Below, piece by piece: positions 42,337-63,814 of a DNA stretch of 64,000 nucleotides. The position numbers and the translations under genes are program-made. Source of the stretch: a virus. Location: the IMG/VR virus record IMGVR_UViG_3300028844_006574, positions 1 to 64,000 of that record; one strand, given 5' to 3'. The stretch's first letter is position 1, and every line of letters starts with the position of its first letter. The notes below the pieces were generated by a model. It had not been told where the DNA came from and made no database searches. It saw only the letters and a program-made list of their open reading frames with translations.

Positions 42337-42338
42337 TA

Positions 42339-44276: not shown

Positions 44277-44278
44277 TA

Positions 44279-47200: not shown

Positions 47201-48091
47201 GCAACTCAACCATGGATGTCTGACCAGCACAATTTGTGGGATGAAGCGGTCAAAAGCGTAGTTGGTGATGGTGATTCTGAACCAACCGGACTGGGCAAGC
47301 AAGTTTACGAGAGAATCGCTAATTTTACAAATAATAACACGGACATAGACGAATGTACAATAGACAATATACATAACCATGCATTACTATATGATGTAGA
47401 TATACAGTATTATAATTTAAACTACCCACCCACTCTCAAAAGATTGTTAGATTTATGTAGTATAAAACATAGCCGGTTATTCGGTACTGTAGATTACGCT
47501 ACTGAAAACTACGATATGTATACAGATTACACCATCCCGGATACTCGTGAAAATCTAGGTCGGGAAATGGACATACATACAGCAACCATAACACCGGGGC
47601 AGAAAATCGTTGCATATGAAAGGTTCTCTAAAATCTATACACCAATAACAGTTACAAAACCCACCTCTGGTAACCTAGATCAGTACAACAATTTAGTAGA
47701 TGTTAATATTGACAACAACCTGTATAAAGAAGGTGAACCATTTCCACTATCTGCATATAATGTGTTCTGGCAATGGGACCTTGTAGCCCCGGTGACGGTC
47801 AAAGGAGTTAATATAACAGATTATTATGCATTCTATACATTTAACGAGTCAACTGAATTAAATTTCGTTGAAGGTGTTATTGATTGGGACAACCCGAAAA
47901 CATTTTTAACACCTACTTTAAGTTCATTTGATACATGGCAACAAGACAAAGGTATTTTAGATAATATTTTAGAACATCAGCTCAGAGTCGGTCTAGACCT
48001 GTTCAGTGAGACAGTAACTGGGGATATAGATGATGATGGATTAAACAATTATTATGAAACAACCACCGGTTCCACCGTTTCAGCAAATTAA
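44279..48091 (+). CDS. Large baseplate-associated structural protein (PKD domain, gp7-type repeats, beta-propeller-like region)
   Basis: WDFGDG...H.Y..PG.YTI.L PKD motif; GVISDVIIVNPG / GIVSDVIVIQGGRGY repeats; coupled to gp6. Confidence 0.75.
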   Translation: MSSTTDLQFTVLAAEQIYTNELTPVTAVPWPDRYTNTTLPYATVNFSEENMIWDFGDGTTYTGVSAVHIYNWPGEYTIKLTIIDEFGETVISTYEETIIVKDFILTQLGFRELLDVIDIPSGRLVSPITVDFALSWQNYAQKPRTAPQCTDGKQHLMNKGTEPGYWMCGESHPGHETAQQPEVTEFPIYTFNLFASGAEAQPLDVIKYNNNKYSHLELDWSFHSATPSLSAQPVTEILATRTDFVTGSSGDVNTYDLLYYKPVDSNKYIQTSASDPQGVFVGLSGNVSFFYRDDVTKCVNSRNEPVLITVELDQKKIYDQLSVDKRNLSMYKYTNTKPLIINNIKPRVNEAIQLGVTSIGLSEFEISKNKWDSSIINFTITIQDAFNFNILDSKTLSGDSPLSGSDVQLELLDSTTMKPITSRNYVFEQITSELGHLRGQLKFKGNINDVLIKATTTYDQTSGYKTDAIAPWLNSYRPEFVGTGTISNPEISEQGGLYRYYYTDVIQYNGDQLTNNFTNILTGAYLDVDTNGVISDVIIVNPGENLTQPPRITVEDVTGNGAELVPRFNIDGGIVSDVIVIQGGRGYSLTPTLFFTLGDANATVPNATAVVDYNHRVELIAVQPAEPGVIQPKTWGLEYGEPGNDEKPPRIVEATTRQGLTRSRALSAMTTFPGTPRDIKLDNNGSIYIATENKIVQIDPNDLELTNIYDDNGGGVGNFNYVPNPSKNLILEVDLVNVYIANETLITKINKVNNSEVGNTQNQITYDIQHILLHFNDKLYCLTNEPGLVVVDKTTMIVQDSITLPSGSYSDLTTTVDGKIYTVKDARYLLCVDVTDLYVREVYDFGPTASIQTICGDSRGTIWLPDNTSRKLWAIDVVNVQTYNVNSIPGVYEYGSLNHSVYPTPGDGITTGHVLRAKGDWTGFHWLQKFGIIRPGDRTLIGYSSVFNINNKSGTYNISKINEDHDQSATIKSYATQPWMSDQHNLWDEAVKSVVGDGDSEPTGLGKQVYERIANFTNNNTDIDECTIDNIHNHALLYDVDIQYYNLNYPPTLKRLLDLCSIKHSRLFGTVDYATENYDMYTDYTIPDTRENLGREMDIHTATITPGQKIVAYERFSKIYTPITVTKPTSGNLDQYNNLVDVNIDNNLYKEGEPFPLSAYNVFWQWDLVAPVTVKGVNITDYYAFYTFNESTELNFVEGVIDWDNPKTFLTPTLSSFDTWQQDKGILDNILEHQLRVGLDLFSETVTGDIDDDGLNNYYETTTGSTVSAN

Positions 48092-48126
48092 TAATTGAAC
48101 CTCAATTATTAACCTATAAATATAAA

Positions 48127-48885
48127 ATGCACAGTGTTACTGTAGTAGTACCTATATTTAAACCGTGTAGTTTCCGGTCGCGTAATATAACCTTTTTGTT
48201 AAATGAGCTAAATAAACTACAAGTAAAAGTAATTGTTGTAGAACAAACACTAAACGATATTGCAAATAACAGGTTTGAAAAACTACCTAATGTAAACCAA
48301 GTCAATTTTGAAAAAAATACAAAACATTTTCACAAAACATATATATGTAATAAAATTATTGAACATATTGAAACAGAATATGTATGGTTTATCGACAGCG
48401 ATTTTTACATGGATTTCAATACGATTCTTATAAATCGAGAATTTTCAAAGTTTGATTTCTTCAAACCGTTTGATACATGTAAAGACTTAAACGAATTTCA
48501 GACTCAACAGCTGGTTACAACTAAACATATAAATGAAAACATGCTCAGAACAAATATGTCATCAGACCGGTTTATTAAATATTTTGGCGCGTTGAGTTAC
48601 ATATGTAAAGTGGATAGTTTTAAAACCTCCGGGCAGTTGGATGAAAAATATATAGGCTGGGGTTATGAAGATTTGGATTTATTTTTAAATATATACAAGC
48701 AAAACTATAGTATAGGTGTAGCTCACGGTGTAAATGCTGTACACATGTGGCACCCTCCTGTGACAAATAAAGCTAAACATATGTTGATAAATAAAAAATA
48801 TTTTGAAAATAAAGGTTACACTATTGACAGAGTTAAACAAGCTCACCGGGAATTGTTTGAAAGTAAAACCGTAATTGACTATTAA
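48127..48885 (+). CDS. GT-A glycosyltransferase with GT7 (galactosyltransferase-like) C-terminal motif
   Basis: VVEQ, FIDSD (DxD), LDEKYIGWGYED, HMWH; TATAAATA immediately upstream. Confidence 0.85.
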   Translation: MHSVTVVVPIFKPCSFRSRNITFLLNELNKLQVKVIVVEQTLNDIANNRFEKLPNVNQVNFEKNTKHFHKTYICNKIIEHIETEYVWFIDSDFYMDFNTILINREFSKFDFFKPFDTCKDLNEFQTQQLVTTKHINENMLRTNMSSDRFIKYFGALSYICKVDSFKTSGQLDEKYIGWGYEDLDLFLNIYKQNYSIGVAHGVNAVHMWHPPVTNKAKHMLINKKYFENKGYTIDRVKQAHRELFESKTVIDY

Positions 48886-48897
48886 ATACTAATATAC

Positions 48898-51800
48898 ATG
48901 TCAATCAACAGCACCAGATACTATTCGAGTGATGATACAACACTATCTGCTACAACCACTAAACCACTAACATATGTTGAATGGTTACAGTATGAAACAT
49001 CATTTGATAGGGCATCCGCATTTGAGCAGTACACAAGGTATCTATCTGAATGGTACAATAAGAGAGATGTAAACAACCAAGTCACAGATGTACAGTATAT
49101 AAGAAATATATACACTGAGTTATTGAAACAAATTTCCATAGAGTTTACCACACCTGATGAAAAGCGTTTTTTATCTAATATAGATTTTGAAAATAAAAAC
49201 GACTTGGATGTTGCTTTACCTTTTTTCGCTAGAAAGTTAAAGCAAATCGCGATATATTATTCAAATCAAAGAGAAGAAATTAAATTTTCCGGTGTCAAAG
49301 CCAATTTGAAAGGTAGTGATTATGGAATCAATCAAGTTGTTTATAAACAAGTGGCCGAGATCATAAAATATGACCCTGACATTCAATCTCAATTGGCTGA
49401 TATGGGACTATCACAGCAAGACGTACTAACGAATTTGAGAGTTGAAGTACAAGAATTGTATGACACGGAACAAAACTATTATAATATACCATATGAATCT
49501 GATGCGAGTAGTTACACCGGTACCGGTTCAAATAGATATAATTACTTCAACATGTCGTTAATTCCTCAAAGAGAGAGAATGTTTTTATCTGATACATTTA
49601 CCGAGACTGTGAAGGAATTGATAGAACAAGTACCGGTAATCATGTTTTCGGGTATCGAAAGCGTAACCCAATCAGACTCGAAGGAAATGAGAGATATAGA
49701 GAATAGATCATATGCCATATCTGATATTATAACCGGAACGGAATTAGATAGATTAAATGATAAACAATTTTCAAATTATTTGTCAACGGGTCAGTTAAAT
49801 ATAGAATATGAACAACTCGCTTTTAAAAAATACTGCGGTACCGACTATTATTATTTGAGCACCGGTGATACACTGTCCCAAGTAGTATCTTCCAAATTAT
49901 TTGCGGCTGATAACCCACATAAAGAAATATTAAATAAATTTTACCCAACTATATTAACCACAAACGGTGAAGGGTTGTATAAGCAAGAATATATTGGAGG
50001 TTATTTTAACTCAAACAATGTGGGTATTTTAACATACACTACTTTAGATTTTGAGTATAAATTCAAACCAACTGAAACAAACAAAACATACTTTTTTCCA
50101 GACCCATCCACTGGCTCAACCGGGTTCTTTGGAGCTGATAGACCGTTTGAAACAGTAGTAGAGTATTATGAAAATGTGAATTGGCAAAAAAACGCAATAA
50201 CAACACATTATAATTTTGGTTTACAAAAACAGTACAAAAACCTCATCAGATTTACCCCGTATCAATCAAAATCTGACACGTATATGACACAAACCGGTGT
50301 CAATAGAAGTACAGATGAATTTGACTTTTGGGAACAAAAAAGTGACAATGTCTGGAAAAACCCGGACATATACCCACTTGGAGAAAATTACACACAACCA
50401 ATAGACACACGATACGGTCAGTTGCTAGGAGGAGACAAGGTATTATATAAATGGAAATCTGATATATATGGTAATGAATATACTTTAATTAAAACAAAGG
50501 TTGAACCAGTTGAACAACCACCTATCAACAAAAATTCAACTCTATATCAGACCGAGTTAAAAACCATACCGGAAGAGCACTTAAAACCCGCTAGTAGACA
50601 TAAAAATAATATAGTACCCAAGCACCACAAAAAGAAAACTCTGACAGAACAACAATCGATCGCCGGTGAATTGTATATTAGGAACAATACATATACCGGT
50701 ATATTAACCTTAAATTCACCTCTGGTAAAACCTTTATACGAAAAATATACCGTACAGGGTAAGGTAACATATAGAGACTCGGAAATAACATTAACCGATA
50801 TATCTTCAGAAATAACTAACGAGTTGCTAGATATTGATGTGATTTATGATACGATAGTCTTTGAAACTCGTAATTACTTAGTATTTGAAAGAATATCCTA
50901 CGATTATGATACCGGGAAAATAAGCACCGGTCATAATAATTTTTCGTTTTTGAAAAAAGACTATCATCAGAACCGGTATGAAAAAACAAGTAATTGGTGG
51001 TATGACAAATCTCAACAAAGTCTAATGGTGGTAAAAACTACCGTCCACCCGGAACTATCTGCAACTACAGACAAGATGATTTACCCGGAAATATATGACT
51101 ACAACATGAATTCCGGTGTTTTGAGACGTACGTACCCGGATCAAGACTTAACAGATGATCAGATTATATATGAAACATCTGTATATTCTCTGTCAAGTAT
51201 AAATAAATTCAATATAATAGACATAGATCGAGTAAAATCACCTAGAATAACATACAACAAAGATTCGGAAAGATATACAATGACTCAACTAGGTTATGAT
51301 ATCGCGGATAATATATTTCTATTAAAAAACGACTTTTTAATGTATGATAACACGGTACAGGCAGTCAAACCAAGTATCTACAAAAACAATTATATAATAT
51401 ATACACTGAACCCGGCTAATGATAGCATACAGAGAACATTTATGTATGAAACAAACCCTAGTCTGACATATCTATCAATGAGTGAGTTTACATACATGCA
51501 CGACGATGTTAGAAACTTGTTGTTCATGGGATGTCTGGAGAACCGAACTACTGAAAACCCAGACCCTCAACCCAATAGCAGTTGTGTGTTTATACACGGT
51601 ACAGAACCACAAAACATGCAAACAAACAGAGACATGGTGATGTGTTTTGACTTCATGACATGTGGGTTTATAGACGGTGACACGACTGCAAAACCAAACG
51701 GGTTGAGTGTAGTGTTTTTCCAAGCACGTGTTAAGGATTTAAATTTAAAAAATGCTGCAGCTTCAGAACCGGAATATGAACTACTCGATGATGGTGGGTT

Positions 51801-52629
51801 AGGGCCTGCATTTACATATTTAGATGATGTAACCCGTGGTACAAACACTCAAAGTGCTTTATCCGGTTTAGACACTGGACATGCATGTGTAGCTTTAGAC
51901 GTTGTTGGTAATGTAGGTGGTAATACAAAAACACCAAACAACATAACCGTATTCGCGCAGTACGATACAGTGAATAGATTTGAAGAAACAACGAATGTTG
52001 ATTCAAGCAAGTATAACTTTTGGTCAGACATATCAGAATATACCGACTACACAGATTTACCATTTGTCAGGTGTAAAGTAGTGTTGACCGATTTAGGTAA
52101 GAGAATTAAAGTATATTTGAAACATCCTCATGAACCAGAGTTTGAATTGGTATCAGATGTGTCACTGCTCCCGGCTGCAGATGCTAGTAAAGTTTTTTAC
52201 AACGACAAAATATACAAATGTTTAACAGACCATACATCATCAGTAACTATCAATATAGAGGATGACACACGAGTAAGCTACAACGGTACAATATACAGAT
52301 GCACAAGAGACCACACAGCTTCTGTAACAGAAACACCTGATAGTACCCCATTTTATTGGAAAGCAGACAAGCAATGGCCATATACATTAAATGCAACCCC
52401 ATGGACCTCCGGGACAAATTATAAATCTAGTAACTGGATCATGATCCAAAGTTACGCACCTGCTCCCGGGGATTATGAAACATGGGATTCCGGAGGTAAC
52501 ACCTATTACAAGGAGTATCAAGCACCTGATCGATTGAAAATGGCATTAGCAAGTAATACATCAGAAGCTAACACTGGATTGACTGTGATCCGGAACATAA
52601 CGGTAACAGGAGCAGGTAACAACACATGA
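48898..52629 (+). CDS. Large structural protein with C-terminal ConA/L-lectin-like domain interrupted by CBM5/12-like motifs
   Basis: NGLSVVFF..GGLG..VALD..PNNI..MALASNT pattern; V.YN..IY.C..DHT x2; late motif upstream. Confidence 0.65.
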   Translation: MSINSTRYYSSDDTTLSATTTKPLTYVEWLQYETSFDRASAFEQYTRYLSEWYNKRDVNNQVTDVQYIRNIYTELLKQISIEFTTPDEKRFLSNIDFENKNDLDVALPFFARKLKQIAIYYSNQREEIKFSGVKANLKGSDYGINQVVYKQVAEIIKYDPDIQSQLADMGLSQQDVLTNLRVEVQELYDTEQNYYNIPYESDASSYTGTGSNRYNYFNMSLIPQRERMFLSDTFTETVKELIEQVPVIMFSGIESVTQSDSKEMRDIENRSYAISDIITGTELDRLNDKQFSNYLSTGQLNIEYEQLAFKKYCGTDYYYLSTGDTLSQVVSSKLFAADNPHKEILNKFYPTILTTNGEGLYKQEYIGGYFNSNNVGILTYTTLDFEYKFKPTETNKTYFFPDPSTGSTGFFGADRPFETVVEYYENVNWQKNAITTHYNFGLQKQYKNLIRFTPYQSKSDTYMTQTGVNRSTDEFDFWEQKSDNVWKNPDIYPLGENYTQPIDTRYGQLLGGDKVLYKWKSDIYGNEYTLIKTKVEPVEQPPINKNSTLYQTELKTIPEEHLKPASRHKNNIVPKHHKKKTLTEQQSIAGELYIRNNTYTGILTLNSPLVKPLYEKYTVQGKVTYRDSEITLTDISSEITNELLDIDVIYDTIVFETRNYLVFERISYDYDTGKISTGHNNFSFLKKDYHQNRYEKTSNWWYDKSQQSLMVVKTTVHPELSATTDKMIYPEIYDYNMNSGVLRRTYPDQDLTDDQIIYETSVYSLSSINKFNIIDIDRVKSPRITYNKDSERYTMTQLGYDIADNIFLLKNDFLMYDNTVQAVKPSIYKNNYIIYTLNPANDSIQRTFMYETNPSLTYLSMSEFTYMHDDVRNLLFMGCLENRTTENPDPQPNSSCVFIHGTEPQNMQTNRDMVMCFDFMTCGFIDGDTTAKPNGLSVVFFQARVKDLNLKNAAASEPEYELLDDGGLGPAFTYLDDVTRGTNTQSALSGLDTGHACVALDVVGNVGGNTKTPNNITVFAQYDTVNRFEETTNVDSSKYNFWSDISEYTDYTDLPFVRCKVVLTDLGKRIKVYLKHPHEPEFELVSDVSLLPAADASKVFYNDKIYKCLTDHTSSVTINIEDDTRVSYNGTIYRCTRDHTASVTETPDSTPFYWKADKQWPYTLNATPWTSGTNYKSSNWIMIQSYAPAPGDYETWDSGGNTYYKEYQAPDRLKMALASNTSEANTGLTVIRNITVTGAGNNT

Positions 52630-55109
52630 AGACACCTTTCAACATACCTAAAATAGAGTTTGATATCACACATGAAAATCAAACATCCACTGGTGAAACT
52701 ATCACACAGACATACGAACAAATCGTACTCAAAGGACCTCATGAAATACAGTTCAACATAAAATCCCAACCTGAGCTGATCAAGGTGGTATACAATCTTG
52801 ACTACACTCAACAGTGTGGTACTACAACACAACCAGCGAGTAGTGAAGTACGATATGAACCCGAATTTACTACTGGTAGTAACAATTTGTTAACAGATCC
52901 CGCTGATTCAATAATCACTGGTCGGTTCTTTCCAGATAAATACCAGTACGAAACAACTGTATTCCCAGGCTTAACAACTATAGATAAAGACCTTAACAAA
53001 GTCGTGCATCAGGTGAGTGTACGAGTTGCACAACCATCCGTACATGATTATGTCAATGATTTAGACATTGTGGATGTAAGAACATTTACAAATCTGTCCG
53101 GTAAACGAGGCAAGGCATTGCTATTACTAGAGGACCAAACAAACAATTTTATAGTCCCTATGACATTGTTTGGAGAGAGACAATACACCAGTACAATTGA
53201 GCTAGGAGACGCACTGTTTGGGCAGATAGTATTCAATATATGTGTATCTAGAGCACCGTACGATAATGTCAAACCTGACGGTACTGAAGTGGTAACAACT
53301 AGTGAGTCATTTTTAGCAGAAACAGTTTTTTACGGTCAGACCAGGTTTGGTACATATGAAGCTGAAGGTTTCCCCGCAGCTGTTCGTGACCAATTCACAA
53401 TAAACAACACAGGTAGTTATCCGCTCCGGGTTTTATCTGTTACTAACCCTAACACACCCTTTTATATGGATGGTATTCAACTAGAAGGTGTATACTCCCC
53501 GGTAGACAGTGGATGTTTAAATTCAAAATCTATTTATGTTTATTTCTCCCCACCTGACTTGATTGATTCAGCGCAATCACAAGGCCAAAATTTTTCTGTA
53601 ACATATCAGGATAGCATCATCATTGAAAATGACAGTGTGAACAACCCCGAGATCAAAATAGATTTAACAGGTACCGCCAAATCCGGGTACTTGGTTGTAG
53701 ATGGACCCGGTTTCACTAGTGATGACCCGGTTGAGTTTGACCCAACATTAGTTGGTGAAAAAACATTACAACCAATCACAATAAGCAACAACGGTAGCTG
53801 CCCGGTCAAGATATTCGATATTGAATATGATGACGATGCGGAAATCACTCCAGATGGAGTGTCATACCCATTTGTTTTGTTACCTCAAGAATCTAGAACA
53901 ATAAATGCGGCTTTCAGACCAACTGAAGCGCGTTACTTAGAAGATATAGCAGACGAAATCGCATACCCGGTACCATATGAAGCTGTGATACCTAAAACCG
54001 TCAACTGGACCATACGTAGCAACGCGTTCAATGACATAACTGTACCAGCCGCTTTGACCGGTCATGCATTCACTACTACAACTACCACAACTACTACTAC
54101 AACAACTACTACAACAACTACTACAACCACCACAACTACAACTACAACTACAACTCAAAGTACCACAACCACAACCACAACCACAACCACAACTACAACA
54201 TGTCCTGTTGAACCGGAAGTGGTGTTTTTGAAGTGGCAAGTGAATCCAGTGTATGTTGTGGAAGGAAAAACAACAAGCATCAGAATAATTAGGGACAGTC
54301 GTAGTACATACAAAGGAGCTCTGCTTGTGGATTACCATCCAGAGGGTGTTACTGACAGTGCACAACCCGGAGAAGATTATGATGAATCTGTGAACACTAG
54401 TGTGGCGTTCTTCCCTGAAAATGCCATGTCGACCGACATCATAATCGGTACATTGGCTGGTGGTGGTATCACGATAGACGGTGTAGAGTTACAGATTTCA
54501 GGTTTGGAAACAGCTGAATATTTCAACATGATGTTGACCAACATCAGAGCCACTCCACCAGAGGGTACCGAGGATGTGTTCCCGTACAGATGTGTACCTG
54601 GATATTTCGTAACCGATTCAGAACCAGAAGGTATACCGTCTGCAAGTGAACCAGTACCATACGTACCCAAGCCTGTGTTGATTCTAGACAAACCTGGTGA
54701 TGCCAGCGTGTCGTTCAAAGGGAGTTGTACATTGGAAGACGTGACCGCGTTGTTGAGATGTGTGGATGATGATGTTACACTGGAACTATTAGAAGTGGAT
54801 GCGCCAGGAGACGGTGCAACATTGTTGGAAGTGTTCAACAAATACACGGGTCAGCTGATCACCACAGTACCGGTGGCCAACTTACAAAACGGACCGGTGT
54901 ATATAGATGTAAAGGAACACCAAGATGAATTTGGTTATGTACAAATACTGTATGAAGCATGCGGTTGCTGTATAGAGAAGGTGTATTCATGCACTTGTTC
55001 AATAATAGATGTTGAAGGAGAGTTGGTATGTTGTAACATCGCAGGTGTTGATGGAGAGCTTGTATGTTGTGAGATAACACAGGTAGAAGGAGAACTTAGT
55101 TGCGGTTAA
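52626..55109 (+). CDS. Structural/appendage protein: Ig-like (ASH/choice-of-anchor-D-like) domains, poly-Thr linker, Calx-beta-like domain, Cys-rich tail
   Basis: TINNTG..PL.V, TISNNG..PV.I, AFRPT, LTG.A; T28-QS-T13; V.EG...A.PGEDY....F. Confidence 0.75.
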   Translation: MKTPFNIPKIEFDITHENQTSTGETITQTYEQIVLKGPHEIQFNIKSQPELIKVVYNLDYTQQCGTTTQPASSEVRYEPEFTTGSNNLLTDPADSIITGRFFPDKYQYETTVFPGLTTIDKDLNKVVHQVSVRVAQPSVHDYVNDLDIVDVRTFTNLSGKRGKALLLLEDQTNNFIVPMTLFGERQYTSTIELGDALFGQIVFNICVSRAPYDNVKPDGTEVVTTSESFLAETVFYGQTRFGTYEAEGFPAAVRDQFTINNTGSYPLRVLSVTNPNTPFYMDGIQLEGVYSPVDSGCLNSKSIYVYFSPPDLIDSAQSQGQNFSVTYQDSIIIENDSVNNPEIKIDLTGTAKSGYLVVDGPGFTSDDPVEFDPTLVGEKTLQPITISNNGSCPVKIFDIEYDDDAEITPDGVSYPFVLLPQESRTINAAFRPTEARYLEDIADEIAYPVPYEAVIPKTVNWTIRSNAFNDITVPAALTGHAFTTTTTTTTTTTTTTTTTTTTTTTTTTTTQSTTTTTTTTTTTTTCPVEPEVVFLKWQVNPVYVVEGKTTSIRIIRDSRSTYKGALLVDYHPEGVTDSAQPGEDYDESVNTSVAFFPENAMSTDIIIGTLAGGGITIDGVELQISGLETAEYFNMMLTNIRATPPEGTEDVFPYRCVPGYFVTDSEPEGIPSASEPVPYVPKPVLILDKPGDASVSFKGSCTLEDVTALLRCVDDDVTLELLEVDAPGDGATLLEVFNKYTGQLITTVPVANLQNGPVYIDVKEHQDEFGYVQILYEACGCCIEKVYSCTCSIIDVEGELVCCNIAGVDGELVCCEITQVEGELSCG
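54072..54200 (+). repeat. Poly-threonine tract (T28-Q-S-T13) of mixed ACT/ACA/ACC codons
   Basis: Read directly, 43 codons. Confidence 0.97.
54996..55103 (+). repeat. Three degenerate 36-bp repeats encoding C-x-I-x2-V-(E/D)-GEL-x-C
   Basis: CSIIDVEGELVC CNIAGVDGELVC CEITQVEGELSC. Confidence 0.9.
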
Positions 55110-55164
55110 TCAATATGAACCGCTTTAAAACTGAAATTTGTGAATAAATAATCACTAGAGTGCT

Positions 55165-55911
55165 ATGTCCTGCGAAAACTGTAACATTATAATCCGAAAC
55201 GTTATCGGAACCCCGGCTTCGTATAAAATCCGGTGGACAAAACTAAATTCTTTAAACGAGGTTGTATATATTAACAATGGACCAATCACAGCTAATGATA
55301 TAAGAGAGACAAATCTGGAGATCTTCGCCGGCGGGCCCGGGCATCCGGATTACGGTCAGTATTGGGATGGTAACAACATAAACATCAGATTTGAAAACTT
55401 TTTTAACCCAGATTGTTACCTTGATGTAACATACAGCTGTGAACCAGCGACAACTACCACATTACCATCAGTTGATTGTTGTGACGGCATGGATTACGCG
55501 ATAAAAACAACAGGCTCCGGAGCCGATCAATCACCATTGGCTGGGTTATCAACAACAGGTTTTGCTCAGGGCACATATCAATATACGCAGACAGGTACAT
55601 TTACATACACAGTTGATATACAAGGTACAGGTAAGTTATGCTACGGTGGAATAAATCAGACGGCAACCCCTCGAGGCTCCGGGCTTGGTTGGTCATGTGT
55701 ATTGGTCAATGGTACTGGTCAAGAAGTAGAAGCTGATGGAACAACTTTAGTACAAGGCTTTGCCGGTCCGGTTGGTAGAATAACAATGATTAGGCCATGG
55801 TCAGATAATGTAAACGGTAACTATGTAACATACGTATCTCCAAGCGGTATATGTTTTAGAGGGCAACTCGACGAAAATGGACCATTTTTCGTAGAATTGA
55901 GAGAAGTGTAA
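55165..55911 (+). CDS. Cys/Gly/Thr-rich late protein
   Basis: 248 aa; TAAATA upstream; PATTTTLP linker. Confidence 0.7.
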   Translation: MSCENCNIIIRNVIGTPASYKIRWTKLNSLNEVVYINNGPITANDIRETNLEIFAGGPGHPDYGQYWDGNNINIRFENFFNPDCYLDVTYSCEPATTTTLPSVDCCDGMDYAIKTTGSGADQSPLAGLSTTGFAQGTYQYTQTGTFTYTVDIQGTGKLCYGGINQTATPRGSGLGWSCVLVNGTGQEVEADGTTLVQGFAGPVGRITMIRPWSDNVNGNYVTYVSPSGICFRGQLDENGPFFVELREV

Positions 55912-56468
55912 TGAGATTGTTACAATTACAAGACGAGGTGCAATATTACGTAGGGTGGTACGGAGTGTGTAAAGAAGACGGTACCCCGGATGCTAGTGAT
56001 AGTGACGCGCCCTGTCAAAATATAGATTTAAATACAGGTAGATACGCAGACGGTACTTTATTACAATGGGACAATGGGAAGGGAAACTTCCGCGACCAGT
56101 TACAGTTTGTACAACAAGTTCGGGATGATGGTAAAGACTTTGGGTTGTATGATATGAAAGTTCTAGATGAGATCCGACAATTTTTTATGTTTAGATACGG
56201 TCTCAGCACTAGTGATGCAGCACAAGCTGTTGACCAAGCCATCCGGGAGGAGCTGAACACTCCTCCACCAACCGGGCCTTTAACAAATATTGTAAATTTT
56301 GCTGACCTTGTGTGCGGTAAAGCATATACTATTGTAGTTAAACCTGGTACTGGCGGAACTGGTGTTGGTTCTGTTACATGTCAAATAGACATACCGGAGT
56401 TTAGATACATGTATGTAGGTACAGCTGATTCCGGATTAAGATTAACTAACGAGTGTTGTTACAGTTAA
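55911..56468 (+). CDS. Hypothetical Cys-containing protein
   Basis: 185 aa coupled to upstream stop. Confidence 0.7.
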   Translation: MRLLQLQDEVQYYVGWYGVCKEDGTPDASDSDAPCQNIDLNTGRYADGTLLQWDNGKGNFRDQLQFVQQVRDDGKDFGLYDMKVLDEIRQFFMFRYGLSTSDAAQAVDQAIREELNTPPPTGPLTNIVNFADLVCGKAYTIVVKPGTGGTGVGSVTCQIDIPEFRYMYVGTADSGLRLTNECCYS

Positions 56469-56510
56469 TATAACATTGCATATTAAGTAAAATAACCATA
56501 TATATAGTAT

Positions 56511-57626
56511 ATGAAGTTAACAATAGGCATGTCATGTTATGACGATTATGATGGTGTGTGGTTCACCATTCAGAGCATACTAATGTATCACTCTGAGTGT
56601 GTAGACGATATAAATTTTGTTGTTATTGATGGCAACCCGGAAAGCTCTCACGGTAAAGCTTGTGAGCAACTGATCAGCAAACTGAAAAACAAACACGGTA
56701 ACAACGGATTGTATGTGAAAAATGTTTCTTGGCCTGGTACAGCCAGTAGAGACTACATATTCCAGTATGCAAAGACACCATATGTGTTAGTTGTTGACAG
56801 TCATGTACAGATTGTACCAGGTGCGATCAAAAAATTAATAAAATATTATGATAAACAACCAGATTGTAAAAATTTGATACACGGACCATTGCTAGATGGC
56901 GCCGGTAACACATTTGCTACTGAGATGTCACCAGAATGGGATTACAACATGTATGGTAAATGGTTGGTAAACCCTGACCGGTTGAAATTAAACAAAGAGT
57001 ACGAGATTGAAATCATGGGCCTAGGCTTATTCAGTTGTGTCAAGTCTAACTGGTTAGGATTCAACAAAAAGTTCAGAGGTTTTGGTGGGGAAGAAGGGTA
57101 CATACACAAAAAATATAGAAAAGCCGGTCACAAATCTGTAGCGTTACCCTGGCTCAAATGGAATCATCGTTTCACCAGACCTAGAGGAGTACCTTACCAA
57201 AACGAATACATTGACCGGGTGAAAAACTATTTAATCGGCTGGAACGAGCTTGGTGAAGACACCACAGAAATAATAGACTACTACAGCACCAGCAACACAC
57301 AGCCTGGCCAGGAGCGAGAGGCTATAAACGAATCAGATCTGCTGGTGCTACAAGATAAACTGTCACAAACCAAATTAAACTCTGTAGCACCTGACGCTCT
57401 AGCAGAAGAACATCGTCAGTTACGTGCTCGAGTGATTGAGTTGGAGATGAAATTGATGGAACTAGCTTTCTCACCAGAGTCTAACAAAGTAAAAGAGATG
57501 AGTCTGTCGGAATACACACAACAAACCGAACGATCAACAAATGTATTAGAAAAACCACCAACTGACCCGGTAAAGGCGATAGAGGATTCATTCAAACAAA
57601 AATTAATCCAAGAACCACAGGGTTAA
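56511..57626 (+). CDS. GT-A glycosyltransferase resembling polypeptide GalNAc-transferase catalytic domain (GT2/GT27-like), with C-terminal coiled coil
   Basis: VVDSHV (DxH), MGLGLFS, GFGGEE, NHRF. Confidence 0.8.
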   Translation: MKLTIGMSCYDDYDGVWFTIQSILMYHSECVDDINFVVIDGNPESSHGKACEQLISKLKNKHGNNGLYVKNVSWPGTASRDYIFQYAKTPYVLVVDSHVQIVPGAIKKLIKYYDKQPDCKNLIHGPLLDGAGNTFATEMSPEWDYNMYGKWLVNPDRLKLNKEYEIEIMGLGLFSCVKSNWLGFNKKFRGFGGEEGYIHKKYRKAGHKSVALPWLKWNHRFTRPRGVPYQNEYIDRVKNYLIGWNELGEDTTEIIDYYSTSNTQPGQEREAINESDLLVLQDKLSQTKLNSVAPDALAEEHRQLRARVIELEMKLMELAFSPESNKVKEMSLSEYTQQTERSTNVLEKPPTDPVKAIEDSFKQKLIQEPQG

Positions 57627-57667
57627 AAACAATCCCCTATAAAAGAAAAATTGTATAAATATATACA

Positions 57668-60010
57668 ATGGCTCAGCAAAGATACATATACCCACCTTCA
57701 ACAATAGAAGGTGTTGAAGCAATATATGCCAACCCGGAAATTGGTGATGGGTTCACAACAACATCTCAGCTGATTGCTAATTATGACATATTGCTCGACC
57801 GTACAGTGATAGACAAGCTAGATTTACCTAAGAAGTGGGATGTTTTACATTTGAACCCCAACGAACTAGCAACAAGTGCCAGTATATTCAACATAATTAA
57901 CGGTTTTAACGAAAATTTCGCTTATTTAAACTCAAGAGCTATACTAATATCCAACATATTACCAGGAAACTACATGGGATTTTACACCCATAATGGTGAT
58001 TCCCCTGGTGCCCCAGTGTTCAAATCATCAGACACACCTGTACCTTTGACCGGGTACAATCTTGGTGGTACCATACAAATATCCACTAATGCTCCTTCAA
58101 TTTCTGGAACAATGAAAGGAGAACATTTGAATAGTTTGATCACCGGTACTTGGGTGAGAGATAACACATCTGTGGCTACAGAATATGCCGACTCAGGCCG
58201 CGAAAATTTTCACCTAGGCTTCCTAGGAAGCCAGCAAGCAATAACTGTAGTGAAAATGTCAAACACCCCTATTAATCAGTCTGCTCCTAAGTTCACCCCG
58301 GATGGAGAAATCTCTGGTTCTCAAGGCTGGGTCGTATTAGACAACTACAAATCTGCAGAACCATTCCCATCAGCAAACAACACCTTAATATTTAACAATA
58401 TACAAAAAATTAAATCTAGTGATAGTAAGAAATTGTATGTTTTTGATAGAGGGTTACCGCGACTAGGTGTCTCTAATGTGTCTAGTAGTAGTCAACGATC
58501 TGTGATATATCGATACGATGTATCCGGTTACTTAGCCTCTGATTCTCAAAACAGTATTAAGAATAACAAGTTAGTGCTTGAAAACATGCTCGGGGATGTT
58601 AACAACGCGACAAACACATCGGATATAATCAACCCTGTCGCATTCACTACAACTCCAGATGATCAATTGATTGTGTATGATGAACACGACTACACATTTA
58701 AAATATACGATAAAAACAACAACTTTTTATTTAAAAGAGCAAAACGGAACATCGTCTTCCGCGGAGCAACTGGAACCACCAAGAAATACACGGGTGTTTC
58801 TGACATACATTATGATAAATTTACTGATCAGATATATGTATTAACCCCCGGAGGTTTTTTGACGATATTAGACAATGACTATAAAACCGTTGCTACTCTC
58901 ATGATAAGCAAGGACACATCAAATCAGGGAACATCATTGACTCAATCAGATATGGATTTGAGATACTACAAGGTTGGGCAACCTGGTGACACCACGAAAG
59001 AAACATTCATATCTATAGAGTTTAGTCTCAATGAACCAAACATATATTACATACTGACTAACCGTCGGGTGATCAAACGTTTCAAATCTAGAGATTTTGA
59101 CATTGGAGTGTTCAGCTTGTTAGACCATAACATTGGTGTTTCTGCATCCGATCTCGAAGAACATAATATTGCATGTCGTGCCGCATTGAAATTTATGAGT
59201 GTTTCACAAGAAGTGGAAGTTGTCACACGTCAATTTCAAAACGACGAAGGAGAGTTAGTATATATTATTGACAAGGACCGGTCCTATACGTATGATCAAA
59301 TATATTTATATACTGATTTTGTTGATGTAGCCAACGATGGTACTACAATAGCCACGGACGAAGACTTAGGGGAAAAATATATATTATCTTTCAAGGAAAA
59401 GGTAAACACTCGATCGAATCTAAGTGATCAAAACTACTCTATATATGAATTGAGTAACACAACATCATTATCATTTAAAGAGTATAATAGCGATTTTGTA
59501 TACAACAAATTGATGGTGAAGCTTGTCAGTAACCATTTACAATTCATAGAAAAAATAAACTATAGATTAGCCGCGGACTACACCCCGCGTGGTCAATTGT
59601 TTTTCGCTGGGAGAAACTACCTAGATCAACAAGATTACAACAGTCTGATAATCACAGACACAGCGCAACGAAACATGTATGTAGGTATAAATGAATACTT
59701 TTCTTCCGCAGTGCTGAACAGGTGTTTTCAACAACTTTACACCATACAAAAAGACATCATGAAAATGTTAGAGACTAAACACTTGACAACATGGCCTCTT
59801 CCCAGTCTAGATGTACCTATTGAACCATATTTTCATACATATGGGACTGAATATAATGACATAGACGGAAAACCGTACACAGGGTTTTATTATGTCCGGG
59901 AACAGCCAACCGGTGACATATATGTACAAGGCCGTAATGAAGCAGATGGTACAACATTATTAGATGGAAGCCCTACAACAGACAGGTACTTGAATACAAT
60001 TGTAACTTGA
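57668..60010 (+). CDS. Large late structural protein with beta-propeller-like repeats
   Basis: LYVFD, LIVYD..., IYVLT, IYYILT strands; TATAAATA 6 nt upstream. Confidence 0.65.
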   Translation: MAQQRYIYPPSTIEGVEAIYANPEIGDGFTTTSQLIANYDILLDRTVIDKLDLPKKWDVLHLNPNELATSASIFNIINGFNENFAYLNSRAILISNILPGNYMGFYTHNGDSPGAPVFKSSDTPVPLTGYNLGGTIQISTNAPSISGTMKGEHLNSLITGTWVRDNTSVATEYADSGRENFHLGFLGSQQAITVVKMSNTPINQSAPKFTPDGEISGSQGWVVLDNYKSAEPFPSANNTLIFNNIQKIKSSDSKKLYVFDRGLPRLGVSNVSSSSQRSVIYRYDVSGYLASDSQNSIKNNKLVLENMLGDVNNATNTSDIINPVAFTTTPDDQLIVYDEHDYTFKIYDKNNNFLFKRAKRNIVFRGATGTTKKYTGVSDIHYDKFTDQIYVLTPGGFLTILDNDYKTVATLMISKDTSNQGTSLTQSDMDLRYYKVGQPGDTTKETFISIEFSLNEPNIYYILTNRRVIKRFKSRDFDIGVFSLLDHNIGVSASDLEEHNIACRAALKFMSVSQEVEVVTRQFQNDEGELVYIIDKDRSYTYDQIYLYTDFVDVANDGTTIATDEDLGEKYILSFKEKVNTRSNLSDQNYSIYELSNTTSLSFKEYNSDFVYNKLMVKLVSNHLQFIEKINYRLAADYTPRGQLFFAGRNYLDQQDYNSLIITDTAQRNMYVGINEYFSSAVLNRCFQQLYTIQKDIMKMLETKHLTTWPLPSLDVPIEPYFHTYGTEYNDIDGKPYTGFYYVREQPTGDIYVQGRNEADGTTLLDGSPTTDRYLNTIVT

Positions 60011-60041
60011 TAACAACAACCTTTTAACATAAATATACACA

Positions 60042-61820
60042 ATGGCAACAGGTAACGACAGCACTTTCGGACGACAACTGATGTCGTATGTTCAATCCAA
60101 ACTACCATATACTTCAAATAATAATACTATTGAAAATGTGGATGAACTCAACCCTAAATACAAACACTTTTTCAAGACAGGTACCAGAAGAACTGAACTT
60201 ATCCAAAAACATGCTATTAGTACTGTCAAAGCTGGAGAGGATGTACCCATGGGTGGTTTCAACATCGACAAAAAATACCTGGATTACATGTATGCCAATA
60301 TTGATGTCGATAAGGGTAAAAGAATACGAGACTACAGGACCATGGGGGCTTATGCCGAAGTCGCTGACGCTCTAGACGAGATATGTGATGAATGTGTAGT
60401 AGAAGATGACAACGGTCAGATAATCAAAATCGAATATGATGATGCTAGGGATCTAAGCTCCAATGAAAAAGACTCTATCAATCACGAATTTGACAAGTTT
60501 ATAGAGCAGTTCGAATTGGAAGAAAAAGGCTGGGAGCATTTCAGAAACATATTAGTGGATGGTGAGATATTTTTTGAACATGTTATACATGAGGATTATA
60601 AAGATGCTGGTATATTAGGTATAATGAATGTTCCGACTGAGCTAATGGACCCGGTGTATGATAACATCCAAAATACAATAGTCAAAGGATTCATTCTTAA
60701 AAAGCCAGTGTTGAACCCTCAAACCGGTGGTTTAGACAAGTACGAGTTCATACCCTTGGATAAAAACCAAATGACTTATATCAACAGCGGTATCTGGAAC
60801 CAAGACAAATCATTAAGACTACCATTTGTAGAAAATTGTCGTAGAGCTTACAGGCAATTGTTGTTGATGGAAGACGCTATCATTATATATAGATTAGTAA
60901 GAGCCCCTGAACGGTTAGTATTCAATGTAGATGTTGGAAACATGCCCCCACCCAAGGCTGAAGCTTATTTACGTAAACTGATTCAAAACTATTGGTCTAG
61001 GAAAACACATGATGCGTCAAGCTCAGGTGATGGTAACACACAAACCTTCAACCCACAGTCGATGCTTGATAGTTTTTGGTTTGCTAAACGACAAGGTAGT
61101 GAAGGTACGCAGGTTAGTAACTTAGAAGGCGGTGCCAATCTAGGGGAACTAGATGACTTGCTATACTTCATGAAAAAATTGTACAAGTCACTCAAAGTGC
61201 CGGTGAATCGCTTGAACCCAGAATCCACTGTAGAAGACCCGAGTCAAGTGCTGCGAGAAGAACTCAAATTTGCTAGATTTGTCATCCGATTACAACAAAA
61301 TTTTGCCTCTGGGTTGAAAGACGGTTTCATAACCCATTTGAGAATGAGAGGTACCTGGAGCGATTTGGATTTGAAAGAGAAAGACTTCAGGTTCGTGTTC
61401 AACCCGCCTAGAAACTATCACGAACTACGTCAACAGCAGATATTTGAATTACAGTACAACAACTTCAGTCAAATGACTCAAAACGAAGGTGTTAGTAACA
61501 TATTTGCACAGAAAAAATACCTCAAATGGAGCGACAGTGAAGTGAAAGCCAATAGAGAATTTTTACGGAAAGATAAGGAAATTGCATGGGAGTTAGCTCA
61601 GATTGAAAGCGGAGGCCCTAACTGGAGAGAACAATTAGAAGCACAAGCAGCAGACCCTGCAGCTGGTGGTGACGCCCCGGGAGCAGCTCCAATGGACACC
61701 GGTGGAGGTTTAGGTGCACCCCCACCAGCATTCGGTGGCCCGGCGGAAACTGGTATGGAACCAGCAGCAGATGCACCAGTAGACATCGCTCCACCTGAGG
61801 ACACCCCGCCTGCGGCATAA
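60042..61820 (+). CDS. gp20: Portal protein (T4 gp20)
   Basis: YR.M...EV..A.DEI, VDG.IFF, MEDAIIIYRLVRAPERLVFNVDVGNMP..KAE.YL, LYKSL.VP..RL, REELKF. Confidence 0.97.
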   Translation: MATGNDSTFGRQLMSYVQSKLPYTSNNNTIENVDELNPKYKHFFKTGTRRTELIQKHAISTVKAGEDVPMGGFNIDKKYLDYMYANIDVDKGKRIRDYRTMGAYAEVADALDEICDECVVEDDNGQIIKIEYDDARDLSSNEKDSINHEFDKFIEQFELEEKGWEHFRNILVDGEIFFEHVIHEDYKDAGILGIMNVPTELMDPVYDNIQNTIVKGFILKKPVLNPQTGGLDKYEFIPLDKNQMTYINSGIWNQDKSLRLPFVENCRRAYRQLLLMEDAIIIYRLVRAPERLVFNVDVGNMPPPKAEAYLRKLIQNYWSRKTHDASSSGDGNTQTFNPQSMLDSFWFAKRQGSEGTQVSNLEGGANLGELDDLLYFMKKLYKSLKVPVNRLNPESTVEDPSQVLREELKFARFVIRLQQNFASGLKDGFITHLRMRGTWSDLDLKEKDFRFVFNPPRNYHELRQQQIFELQYNNFSQMTQNEGVSNIFAQKKYLKWSDSEVKANREFLRKDKEIAWELAQIESGGPNWREQLEAQAADPAAGGDAPGAAPMDTGGGLGAPPPAFGGPAETGMEPAADAPVDIAPPEDTPPAA

Positions 61821-61828
61821 ATAACTAT

Positions 61829-63814
61829 ATGGCAGGAACTCTAGACTCATCATCATTCAACACATCATCTACATCATCAAACTATCAAACCGGTGCCGGT
61901 AGCGCGGCTTTAACAGGTGAAGATGTAAAACCACTTAGTTCATTTTATAGCACCGCTCTAAGCCCCAGGTGTGATAGTTACGAGACATTAGCCACTCGTA
62001 TAGCATATGCTATGGGTTATCCCATGACCAATGTCGAAGTGCACCCTAACGCAATTTTTGACAATATTAGTATAGCTTGTGAATTCTTCGCAAAATATGC
62101 CGGGTATACAGAAGAGTATTTGGTGTTCAATAGTGATTTGTATGAACCTGGCAAAGGAGTCCGGATGGATAAACTGTTCACAATAACACCGGACATGAGA
62201 CAGTGTTATGATACAACCAAGCGTAAATTGGCTACGACTTGCCCTCCGGAAGACCCAGTTACAGAAACAGAAACAGTAACAGGTTATAAAGTCACGTGTA
62301 CTGCGGTGGTCACCTCGACTGATGGACCCGCGCTGTCTAGTACAGAGATAATATGTACAGAAAATCCGGTAAACACAACACCTACAAACACAGACCCTTA
62401 CGCTGGAAATTTGGCAAGTATAATAGCTGCATCTTTTACCAATACAAACACTGGGTCTACTACATCAGACAACCAAATACAGGATACATCCACTACACAA
62501 GAATATGATTATGTCGGTGACTGGTCCGCTATATTGACAGCAGATATGATGAGACAGTCGTTGAGACAACGTATAGCTGACCTGATCGCGCAACAAGAAC
62601 CGGTATGCGAAACATTGACCACGGTTGTAACAGGTATGGACAACAGAATCGTTACAGGTACAACAACACTCACATCTTCTCAACCAGTTTATACAGGTGG
62701 TAGTTTAGCACCAATATTAACAGAATCTACAAAATACAGCTTTACATCATCAACAACCGGTACAACAGGTGTATCTGCAACCAGTACATACACCGGTCCG
62801 TTCACGGCAGAAGACGGTAATGTATATTCATTAGACCCTTATGATGTATACCCACCAGGACCAACACAGTTTCAGACAATAACATCTACTACCATAACTT
62901 CAGATGTATTGCAAGTACCATATGAATCGATCGAGTCGACAACAACATGCACACCTGTAACATCGTTGACAGATGAACAATTACAAGCACTAACAGGAAC
63001 TACAACTACTCCCCCTCCCCCGGTTGTAGACCTACCCACGATTGATTCAGACACAACCACCACGACAAAAACAACCACTGGTACTGTTACACTCGAAGGA
63101 GAGGATGGTACTGAAGTGACATGTATAACGTCGGTTAAAATTGAACCAACAACAGAAACAGGTACTCAAACAGTATGTGTAACGAGTAACACAACAGAAC
63201 AGGTACCAACCACCGCAGCAGAAGAAGAGGTATCTGAATGTTTGTACAACAAAATGTACGATTATGATGTAAATGATTATAGAAAAGTGATCGACATCTG
63301 GAGCTTCAATCAAGGTACACACACAGGTGTCAATACCTTATTCACTTTAGAGCAATCATTAGCACAACAAACATATTTCAGTTACTCCATGGGAAATTAT
63401 GGTTTTGACTTGGTTAGTTGGTACGCTGTAAAAGAGTGGTTAGAACTACGCGAAAAATTGCTAGTTACTAAACCATCTATACATTGGGATTTCCGAACAC
63501 AGTACATGCGGTTGATACCTGAACCTCGTAACAAATATTACGGAGTGATAGCGTGTTATGTAGAGTTACCTGTCAAAGACCTGGTCAAAGAGTTATGGGT
63601 GTACAAATACGCATTAGCTTTGACGAAATTACAAGTGGGTCGTACCAGAAGCAAATTTTCTAACGTACCACTCATTGGTGGTGGTACCGTCAATAGTAAT
63701 GGTGACGCTTTGCTGAGCGAAGGTAAAGAAGAAAAGGACGAACTAGAAAAACAAATGTACGAAGGAGCCCCCGGTCTTGGAGACGCTGCACCCCCAATGT
63801 TCTTTGTTGGATAA
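61829..63814 (+). CDS. gp13: Neck protein (T4 gp13-like) with large Thr-rich insertion
   Basis: N-term LATRI...G.P..NVEV; C-term WVYKYALAL.K.Q.G...SKF..VPL.GG..VN.......EG.EE. Confidence 0.88.
   Translation: MAGTLDSSSFNTSSTSSNYQTGAGSAALTGEDVKPLSSFYSTALSPRCDSYETLATRIAYAMGYPMTNVEVHPNAIFDNISIACEFFAKYAGYTEEYLVFNSDLYEPGKGVRMDKLFTITPDMRQCYDTTKRKLATTCPPEDPVTETETVTGYKVTCTAVVTSTDGPALSSTEIICTENPVNTTPTNTDPYAGNLASIIAASFTNTNTGSTTSDNQIQDTSTTQEYDYVGDWSAILTADMMRQSLRQRIADLIAQQEPVCETLTTVVTGMDNRIVTGTTTLTSSQPVYTGGSLAPILTESTKYSFTSSTTGTTGVSATSTYTGPFTAEDGNVYSLDPYDVYPPGPTQFQTITSTTITSDVLQVPYESIESTTTCTPVTSLTDEQLQALTGTTTTPPPPVVDLPTIDSDTTTTTKTTTGTVTLEGEDGTEVTCITSVKIEPTTETGTQTVCVTSNTTEQVPTTAAEEEVSECLYNKMYDYDVNDYRKVIDIWSFNQGTHTGVNTLFTLEQSLAQQTYFSYSMGNYGFDLVSWYAVKEWLELREKLLVTKPSIHWDFRTQYMRLIPEPRNKYYGVIACYVELPVKDLVKELWVYKYALALTKLQVGRTRSKFSNVPLIGGGTVNSNGDALLSEGKEEKDELEKQMYEGAPGLGDAAPPMFFVG

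Follow-up and report, generated by a model that had tools for sequence, protein, structure and literature searches.

A GT27-like glycosyltransferase family encoded beside poly-threonine proteins as a candidate initiator of O-glycosylation in aquatic T4-like phages

The ppGalNAc-Ts, the mucin-initiating enzymes of animals that make up glycosyltransferase (GT) family GT27, share a motif set consisting of DxH, (W/F)GGE and a distal His. Among viruses, chloroviruses and Mimivirus glycosylate their particles with UDP-L-rhamnose of their own making, and to our knowledge mycobacteriophages and some giant viruses are the only cases in which experiments have shown a virus to glycosylate its own particle with enzymes that it encodes. 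A review (PMC12619734) reports that phage-encoded GTs are thought to modify the structural proteins of mycobacteriophages (Freeman et al., 2023) and that in actinobacteriophages the C-termini of capsid and tail-tube subunits were found to carry glycans. Here we analyze a 64,000-nucleotide (nt) stretch of viral DNA (the window), which forms the first part of the 91,375-base IMG/VR virus contig IMGVR_UViG_3300028844_006574, estimated to be 43% complete. The source is, judging by its sequence, an uncultured marine/estuarine T4-like myophage. Our subject is a putative GT encoded by the open reading frame (ORF) at 56511 and its pairing with genes for proteins that carry long threonine tracts; an initial annotation of the window had proposed a phage-encoded, mucin-type O-glycosylation system that coats the virion. 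A full-text literature search found no paper on a pairing of poly-Thr with a GT in phages or bacteria, and returned only the mycobacteriophage case and general reviews.

The genes at the center of the argument lie on the plus strand and are listed below, with lengths in amino acids (aa) and, where available, the ratio of nonsynonymous to synonymous substitution rates (dN/dS). ORFs are named by their coordinates, and related loci by L numbers.

52626..55109, plus strand: 827-aa candidate acceptor protein with T28-QS-T13, conserved in L003 and L004 with the tract retained; dN/dS 0.036
54072..54200, plus strand: poly-threonine tract T28-Q-S-T13 (aa 483-525 of ORF 52626), the proposed glycan acceptor, in mixed Thr codons
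55165..55911, plus strand: 248-aa Cys-rich ORF between the Thr-rich carrier and GT 56511, conserved in L003 and L004; dN/dS 0.07
55911..56468, plus strand: 185-aa ORF immediately 5′ of GT 56511, ending ...CCYS, conserved in L003-L005; dN/dS 0.19
56511..57626, plus strand: GT27-like soluble GT-A glycosyltransferase of 371 aa, candidate initiating polypeptide O-glycosyltransferase; PF00535, E 1.7e-7
61829..63814, plus strand: gp13-type neck protein (head-tail adaptor) of 661 aa with a Thr-rich insert; PHROG 211, E 1e-16
62231..63238, plus strand: Thr-rich gp13 insert of ~336 aa (about aa 135-470), the second candidate acceptor; 25.9% Thr, 7 Cys

GT 56511 has more than 1400 metagenomic homologues, and no NCBIfam family covers its domain. 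Across 89 homologues D96, H98, G190-F-G-G-E-E195, W217, H219, R220, F221 and R223 are invariant. These residues fall in three motifs, namely DSH (aa 96-98), which replaces the usual DxD, GFGGEEGY (190-197) and W-x-HRF-x-RP (217-224), and the order of DSH, FGGEE (191-195) and H219 resembles that of the three GT27 motifs. An AlphaFold model computed from the 89-sequence alignment had a predicted local distance difference test score (pLDDT) of 89.5. When this model was searched against the PDB with Foldseek, the first ~47 matches listed were all GT27 ppGalNAc-Ts. With VIA-align, run against 48,161 chains, mouse GalNAc-T1 (8v9q) scored Z 22.8, with a root-mean-square deviation of 2.9 Å over 258 aa, and Toxoplasma GalNAc-T3 scored Z 21.8; the runners-up, K4CP chondroitin polymerase (Z 18.3) followed by WrtF, B4GALNT1, RmlT and TarS, came after a gap of about 4 Z units. 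Two independent aligners thus agree on ppGalNAc-Ts as the nearest solved folds, in keeping with the initiator-like enzyme that the initial annotation had proposed. Neither a lectin domain nor a membrane anchor was found in GT 56511, in which Pfam shows PF00535 only. Its C-terminal ~100 aa are modeled as helices (aa 274-365) at the place where GT27 enzymes have the lectin domain, and most members of the family end at about 275 aa. Within aa 270-371 we also noted a conserved segment, L-[RK]-x-R-[VI]-[IVM]-E-L-E-[MI]-[KR]-L-[ML], and the extension is confined to the clade of this phage.

Both long Thr-rich segments named by the initial annotation were found, the T28-QS-T13 tract at aa 483-525 of the 827-aa protein and the gp13 insertion, put at ~340 aa and measured at ~336 aa with 25.9% Thr; the PATTTT of ORF 55165, which had been counted with them as a dense tract, holds merely four threonines and carries no weight. 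The 827-aa protein consists of an N-terminal part of ~475 aa, the tract, a C-terminal part of ~300 aa and a Cys-rich end with three copies of VEGELVCC. An ESM Atlas match at 0.92, taken as a lead only, suggests Ig-like (HYDIN/VesB-type) domains in the N-terminal part. The tract is encoded by a mixture of ACT, ACA and ACC codons, and the relative in L004, whose GT is 57% identical, has T26...T13 followed by the same Cys-Pro at the same place. Because the codons are mixed and the tract is kept at this distance, we attribute it to selection on the peptide and not to a slippage artefact. The sequence assemblies of four runs all break at the poly-Thr repeat. Thr makes up 25.9% of the gp13 insert, compared with 7.4% of the rest of gp13 and 7.7% of the window proteome. 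In the close relative L005 (portal 85% identical), gp13 has 369 aa and the same site holds only a short Thr/Ser repeat of the GTETTATTSTS type. On the whole 91-kb contig, ORF 52626 and gp13 are the only ORFs with a Thr run of at least 5 or a 40%-Thr window, and both lie within 5 kb of GT 56511. No Pfam or PHROG family matched ORF 55165. At 54950-55109 the three VEGELVCC-type repeats and further Cys pairs close the 827-aa protein, and the next two small ORFs end in Cys-Cys-Tyr; the Cys-rich ends of these three proteins may belong to a disulfide- or metal-linked assembly.

Relatives of GT 56511 were present on at least 578 viral contigs in an alignment-based scan of IMG/VR. We examined 80 loci and collapsed their GTs at 80% identity to 35-36 clusters; an ORF was scored as Thr-rich if it had a Thr run of at least 8 or at least 60% Thr in 30 aa. 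At most loci the GT closes a baseplate/fibre operon whose genes all run in one direction, and the replication module lies opposite. A Thr-rich ORF on the same strand ends no more than 300 nt upstream of the GT at 33 of the 66 viral loci with enough upstream DNA, and where a locus has any Thr-rich ORF (n = 39), one lies within 3 kb upstream of the GT in 37. The immediate upstream ORF was Thr-rich in at least 15 of 35 GT clusters compared with 18 of 550 other ORFs (Fisher p = 9e-12), and the cluster count is conservative since one 10-member cluster was miscounted as negative. The density of Thr-rich tracts was 8 times higher in the 3 kb upstream of phage GTs than elsewhere (p = 7e-9, 35 clusters), with 16 of 33 phage tracts falling in the first kb. 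A search in the opposite direction, for 14 consecutive ACN codons in viral contigs, yielded 120 loci (85 with an in-frame run of at least 12 Thr); it recovered the 56511 family in seven of the 120, and in five of these seven the GT stood directly downstream of the poly-Thr ORF.

The phage carrier proteins range from 130 to 2431 aa, and their N-terminal parts are mostly non-homologous (13 singletons and two pairs among 17). In 15 of 19 carriers, the Thr tract is followed by a C-terminal C-x(2-7)-C-[NK]-x-L-x-[FYW]-stop, which could serve as a docking or recognition element. This ending, confined to the last ~15 codons, is seen in L010, L022, L056, L062 and others and is absent from the contig analyzed here. 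At some loci an additional ~350-aa Cys-rich ORF stands between the Thr-rich protein and the GT, or directly 5′ of the GT where a Thr-rich ORF is absent (L042:8943-9998, L055:8914-9996, L028:4408-5433, L030, L047 and L075); motifs such as C-x-x-C close to its end hint at a metal- or cluster-binding maturase.

In a scan of bacteria, for which one genome per species was used, 159 relatives of GT 56511 were found in Alpha-, Gamma- and Deltaproteobacteria, Actinomycetota, Acidobacteriota, Planctomycetota, Chloroflexota and others. They are 40-50% identical to the phage enzyme, a similarity close to that of most phage homologues. Here the GT domain is part of proteins of 500-1180 aa, in which it is fused to an N-terminal domain resembling HprK-related kinase A (HprK_rel_A; 77 bits against an NCBIfam cut-off of 200), or to GT25, a second GT2 or TPR. 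The bacterial GT is directly preceded by one to four small ORFs (70-130 aa each; arranged as tandem arrays in some cases), as in L205, L222, L223, L257, L269 and others (e.g., L222:4103-4895). Their products combine a twin-arginine (Tat) signal with the conserved segment K-W-x-K-P-V-V...P-A-H-A and a Thr tail of 10-23 residues; no NCBIfam family covers these peptides. At one locus the neighbor of the GT is a PqqD-domain protein with a Thr-rich tail. Thr-rich tracts are 4.6-fold enriched within 3 kb upstream of the bacterial GTs (p = 8e-6), and all 36 tracts lie no more than 3 kb from the GT. The Tat system exports finished proteins. A cytoplasmic GT, accessory domains of peptide-binding type and Tat export would fit a glycosylation of the Thr tail before export. 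The bacterial pairing appears to agree with the phage data while being independent of phage genome architecture. The co-occurrence with poly-Thr tracts that the initial annotation had predicted is thus borne out for the 56511 family, in which the association is strong in phages and bacteria alike.

On these grounds we think it rather probable that the phage encodes an initiating O-glycosyltransferase that acts on poly-Thr tracts of structural proteins. ORF 56511 would be a soluble, cytoplasmic GT-A enzyme of a large unnamed family and would function as a polypeptide O-glycosyltransferase, placing the first sugar, late in infection, on Thr residues of homopolymeric tracts in phage structural proteins. 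On this contig, the linker T28-QS-T13 within the 827-aa Ig-like protein would serve as acceptor, and the Thr-rich loop of gp13 might do so as well; the appendages would then bear a mucin-like brush of glycans. Acceptor, timing, virion location and donor sugar are all predictions, as are roles of such a brush in shielding, grazer evasion or mimicry.

The initial annotation had joined further sugar-related genes to this core, among them the following four:

11085..12038, plus strand: UDP-4-keto-6-deoxyglucose 3,5-epimerase/4-reductase-type enzyme (plant/giant-virus UDP-L-rhamnose synthase type); RmlD_sub_bind, E 6e-23
20700..21608, plus strand: GT42-like (CstII-type) sialyltransferase-family protein, between the terminase and tail-tube genes; profile of 14 homologues
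38428..38781, minus strand: 117-aa cupin of the mannose-6-phosphate isomerase C-terminal type; PF01050, E 1.7e-33; PDB 7zvm, E 1e-7
48127..48885, plus strand: second GT-A glycosyltransferase, 252 aa, of a rare family; PF10111; PF02709 (Glyco_transf_7C), 25.1 bits against a cut-off of 23

By itself ORF 20700 gave no Pfam match. The profile of its family of 14 homologues matched CstII with E 1.7e-7 (profile positions 25-188) and a CMP-Neu5Ac lipo-oligosaccharide (LOS) sialyltransferase with E 8e-5, and the motifs GNGGS (GNG-S), RCN, TTG (T-G) and G-x-DMY (GiD-Y) align with those of CstII. The Pfam family CST-I matches two of the 14 members and not the window protein, and an ESM Atlas lead agrees. 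The sialyltransferase fold proposed for this gene is therefore supported, as GT42-like, by the family profile. The NDP-rhamnose epimerase/reductase assigned to ORF 11085 was likewise corroborated, its best PDB relatives being 4qqr ("3,5-epimerase/4-reductase", E 3e-30) and 7jid ("UDP-L-Rhamnose Synthase", E 5e-19), with bacterial RmlD at E 8e-7 or weaker. No counterpart of ORF 11085 was found in the 80 GT-bearing related loci. The mannose-6-phosphate isomerase at 38428 is such only in part; the 117-aa cupin corresponds to the C-terminal domain, and the rest of the enzyme is not matched.

Outside the window, at contig positions 84226-86286 (L284:6226-8286), genes for NeuB, a HAD-type phosphatase and a CTP_transf_3 cytidylyltransferase stand in a row. 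NeuB (PF03102, E 4e-76) has 280 aa and lacks the C-terminal SAF domain, and its closest relatives include pseudaminic acid synthase and SpsE along with NeuB; the phosphatase has 120 aa and matches weakly, and the cytidylyltransferase matches with E 9e-10. Because of this cassette, a CMP-nonulosonate donor can, by prediction, be made, and the mannose-6-phosphate isomerase (PMI)-type cupin together with NeuB, the phosphatase and the cytidylyltransferase might, as a guess, constitute a KDN-type (CMP-KDN) route. A search of the 91 kb for the families of NeuC, DegT-type aminotransferase, 4,6-dehydratase and NTP-transferase came up empty, which says little for a contig that is 43% complete.

The initial annotation had two GT-A enzymes in the late structural region, and this was confirmed for 56511 through PF00535 and for 48127 through PF10111 and Glyco_transf_7C; both lie among structural genes, between gp25/gp6 and gp20/gp13. 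GT 48127 has the motifs DSD (aa 90-92), GWGYEDLD and VHMWH and a sequence match to B4GALT1 (E 0.006 over 70 aa), and only seven homologues occur in 5.8 billion proteins. A fold search with its model left chondroitin synthase, LARGE1, K4CP and RmlT tied at Z about 15, and beta4GalT7 reached Z 12.6. A single-sequence scan of viral contigs found none of its relatives and an alignment scan found four loci only; the distant relatives close fibre operons of related phages in which neither poly-Thr nor the 56511 family is present. The model of GT 48127 gives no specific GT7 fold signal, many GT-A families being tied. GT 48127 has no apparent link to Thr tracts, and a sugar-on-sugar extender role for it is a guess. 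For the mucin-type interpretation as a whole, the core of an initiator and poly-Thr is supported by fold and gene context, and the connection of GT 48127 to the Thr tracts is not.

A further gene, ORF 4868, had been called a GT2. It does match a GT2-like Pfam family, but below the cut-off (24.5 bits against 27) and away from the structural genes; it lies in the replication module beside QueC, an amidotransferase and a helicase, a place kept in ten relatives, and is more likely part of another system. As a side observation, QueC, the glutamine amidotransferase and the weak GT2-like ORF occupy 3472-5569 of the window in a row beside the gp41 helicase, and the latter two keep their place in relatives (L057 and others).

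In an extended scheme, ORF 11085, the cupin at 38428, GT 48127, ORF 20700 and the NeuB, HAD and CMP-sugar synthetase genes would provide further sugars, which would extend and cap the O-glycan begun by GT 56511. A single initiator-extender-capper pathway acting on the virion is strengthened by the NeuB/CMP-synthetase cassette, and we still regard it as doubtful. The fullest form of the idea would be a self-sufficient mucin-type pathway, with a GT27-like initiator acting on poly-Thr domains of neck and baseplate, elongation by a second GT-A enzyme with phage-made UDP-rhamnose among the donors, and a phage-made nonulosonic acid added as a cap by a GT42-like enzyme; its initiator family would be a prokaryotic and viral counterpart, and possibly kin, of the animal mucin-initiating enzymes. 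This form we consider unlikely.

Several observations weigh against a GT 56511 that acts on poly-Thr proteins of the particle, and some of them would suit a different account, in which the Thr tracts serve simply as flexible or extended linkers (left bare or modified by host enzymes), the GT acts on DNA, on a host envelope glycan or lipid carrier, or on a small molecule, and the adjacency is gene order inherited at the boundary of fibre and replication genes. Many relatives have the GT at the junction with a primase/gp32/helicase module, which makes a DNA acceptor possible. By sequence the closest PDB relatives are the wall-teichoic-acid GTs TarP and TarS (family profile, E 5e-5 to 6e-3), GalNAc-T7 reaching only E 0.56, and neither the single GT 56511 sequence nor the C-terminal half of the profile matched any PDB sequence; GT 56511 would thus resemble a GT27 catalytic domain by modeled fold without being a GT27 member by sequence. 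Roughly one GT cluster in three lacks a Thr-rich ORF within 10 kb, and most poly-Thr loci of the reverse scan show no 56511-family GT within the DNA examined. Next to portals of 55-60% identity, other phages encode Thr-rich proteins of the (T-x)n type and, within 10 kb, no GT of the 56511 family. In the phage studied here, two small Cys-rich ORFs separate the poly-Thr gene from the GT, and it is gene position, along with the Ig-like lead for the 827-aa protein, that suggests a virion location for the carriers. Phage GTs are, moreover, classically DNA-modifying or serotype-converting, according to the review PMC12619734. Against the linker account stands the nature of the carriers, which are mostly unrelated except for the Thr tract and the short Cys tail; because a portable tract and tail sit on unrelated proteins beside the same enzyme, inherited gene order alone is hard to accept. 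The pairing also recurs in bacteria of many phyla, where there are no phage modules and where the partners are Tat poly-Thr peptides and PqqD- or HprK-type domains. The unbiased poly-Thr scan again placed the GT directly downstream, and GT27 stands clearly above other GT-A folds. We judge the linker account improbable.

The glycosylated poly-Thr proteins might also be released or exported and stay out of the particle, forming a matrix at lysis, acting as a decoy or covering cell debris with an anti-adsorption coat. The bacterial partners, which are small exported peptides and not structural proteins, point that way, and so do the many short phage carriers (130-280 aa) that have no recognizable structural domain. 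However, one Thr-rich segment lies inside gp13, a known neck component, carriers close co-directional baseplate/fibre operons, and the large ones (700-2400 aa) resemble fibre or adhesin proteins; such a non-virion destination strikes us as very improbable. A narrower alternative leaves the action of GT 56511 on phage proteins as it is and competes with the extended pathway only. In it the GT42-like protein, the NeuB/CMP-synthetase genes, the rhamnose synthase, the cupin and GT 48127 would be accessory functions, altering the LOS or capsule of the host envelope or used for something else. Such a role is favored by the scatter of the sugar genes over 80 kb, by the lipo-oligosaccharide acceptors of the structurally solved GT42 enzymes, by the occurrence of GT 48127 relatives away from poly-Thr and by the absence of ORF 11085 from the related GT-bearing loci. 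The position of ORFs 20700 and 48127 inside late structural blocks speaks for a use on the particle instead, as does the general knowledge that giant viruses put virus-made UDP-rhamnose into their own particle glycans (cf. 7jid). This division of labor, with GT 56511 alone modifying phage proteins, is to our minds a quite plausible arrangement, if somewhat short of a probable one. For the step assigned to GT 56511 itself, the initiation of O-glycans on poly-Thr tracts of structural proteins is the reading that we prefer.

The remaining genes of the structural block are as follows:

41836..48091, plus strand: baseplate wedge genes (gp25-like, gp6-like and a 1270-aa PKD-domain protein; PF04965, PF21379, PKD), the first genes of the structural block that holds the GTs
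48898..52629, plus strand: 1243-aa structural/fibre-like protein with a CBM5/12 module; PF02839, E 1e-7
57668..61820, plus strand: 780-aa conserved ORF and gp20 portal, directly 3′ of GT 56511; Portal_T4, E 2e-101; synteny in L003-L005

In 14 related loci a homologue of ORF 48898 shares the operon and lies 5′ of the genes for Thr-rich proteins. The portal is ~30% identical to cyanophage gp20. The window further encodes replication proteins (a RecA/UvsX-like fragment, gp41-type helicase, gp32, RNase H and primase) and packaging and tail proteins (large terminase, gp19-like tube and gp18-like sheath proteins). Just 5′ of the portal in the phages whose portals are 55-60% identical, L291-L296 and L301 (e.g., L292:9280-9996 and L292:3891-7904), are proteins with 24-37% Thr in alternating T-x-T-x form (TRTRT, TQT, TPT). 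The T4 late-promoter word TATAAATA stands 5-6 nt before the start codons of ORFs 48127 (at 48115-48122) and 57668 (at 57654-57661); it is not enriched in the window (10 observed, 6.3 expected), and we did not use it as evidence. Among cultured phages (INPHARED, 50,697 records), neither GT had a tblastn match and the block had no DNA match. Near-identical DNA is present in one marine metagenome, from which the contig probably came, and gap-free copies of ~96% identity occur in several estuary metagenomes that were sampled six years later. All genes of the block are under purifying selection, with dN/dS of 0.02-0.19 relative to a 96%-identical contig.

The 56511 family is abundant in aquatic viral metagenomes and occurs in bacteria of many phyla, and its context ties it to homopolymeric Thr. 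If the preferred reading is right, many marine T4-like phages would bear mucin-like glycan brushes, which would matter for how virions adsorb, stick to particles and mucus, are grazed, decay and act as antigens. The initiating step of mucin-type glycosylation would have a cytoplasmic counterpart in prokaryotes, and poly-Thr together with a soluble GT of ~270 aa would make a small enzyme-and-tag pair that glyco-engineering might exploit. Since bacterial homologues are present in cultured strains, among them Bradyrhizobium diazoefficiens SZCCT0138, Yoonia tamlensis DSM 26879, Labrys okinawensis, Amylibacter marinus NBRC 110140 and Propioniciclava tarda DSM 22130, the question can be put to the test directly.

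Compared with known systems, GT 56511 comes closest to the GT27 ppGalNAc-Ts (GalNAc-T1, 8v9q; human GalNAc-T2; Toxoplasma GalNAc-T3), with which it shares a GT-A domain and, apparently, the order of motifs and which are its nearest solved folds. The acceptors of GT27 are Thr/Ser-rich mucin repeats, a parallel to the poly-Thr neighbors of GT 56511, which are nearly homopolymeric in Thr. GT 56511 shows no significant profile relation to GT27 (E 0.56), and it differs from that family in having no ricin-type lectin domain, membrane anchor or secretory setting. The bacterial members recall loci for ribosomally synthesized and post-translationally modified peptides (RiPP-like loci with HprK-related kinase A and PqqD), being fused to an HprK_rel_A-like domain and placed beside precursor-like peptides or PqqD proteins; the bacterial peptides here have Tat signals and poly-Thr tails, however, the HprK_rel_A score is far below the cut-off, and phage GT 56511 is without such domains. 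ORF 20700, by its profile match, and the NeuB and CTP_transf_3 genes of the contig resemble the CstII/CST-I (GT42) enzymes of Campylobacter with their NeuB/NeuA pathway. CstII acts on lipo-oligosaccharide; ORF 20700 is a putative transferase.

Giant-virus glycosylation offers a likeness in its own sugar-nucleotide genes and GTs, to which ORF 11085 with its kinship to 4qqr and 7jid corresponds; here, in contrast, the virus is a tailed bacterial phage, and no 4,6-dehydratase was found in the 91 kb, that is, in 43% of the genome. The mycobacteriophages share with this phage the placing of GT genes among structural genes, as seen for 48127 and 56511. As predicted from its genes, the system of these aquatic T4-like phages differs from the mycobacteriophage case in its enzyme family and in having a dedicated poly-Thr acceptor. 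If its core is as we describe, which we hold to be fairly likely, it would be a case of a virus glycosylating its own particle by means of an enzyme family and a type of acceptor, homopolymeric Thr, that are both new.

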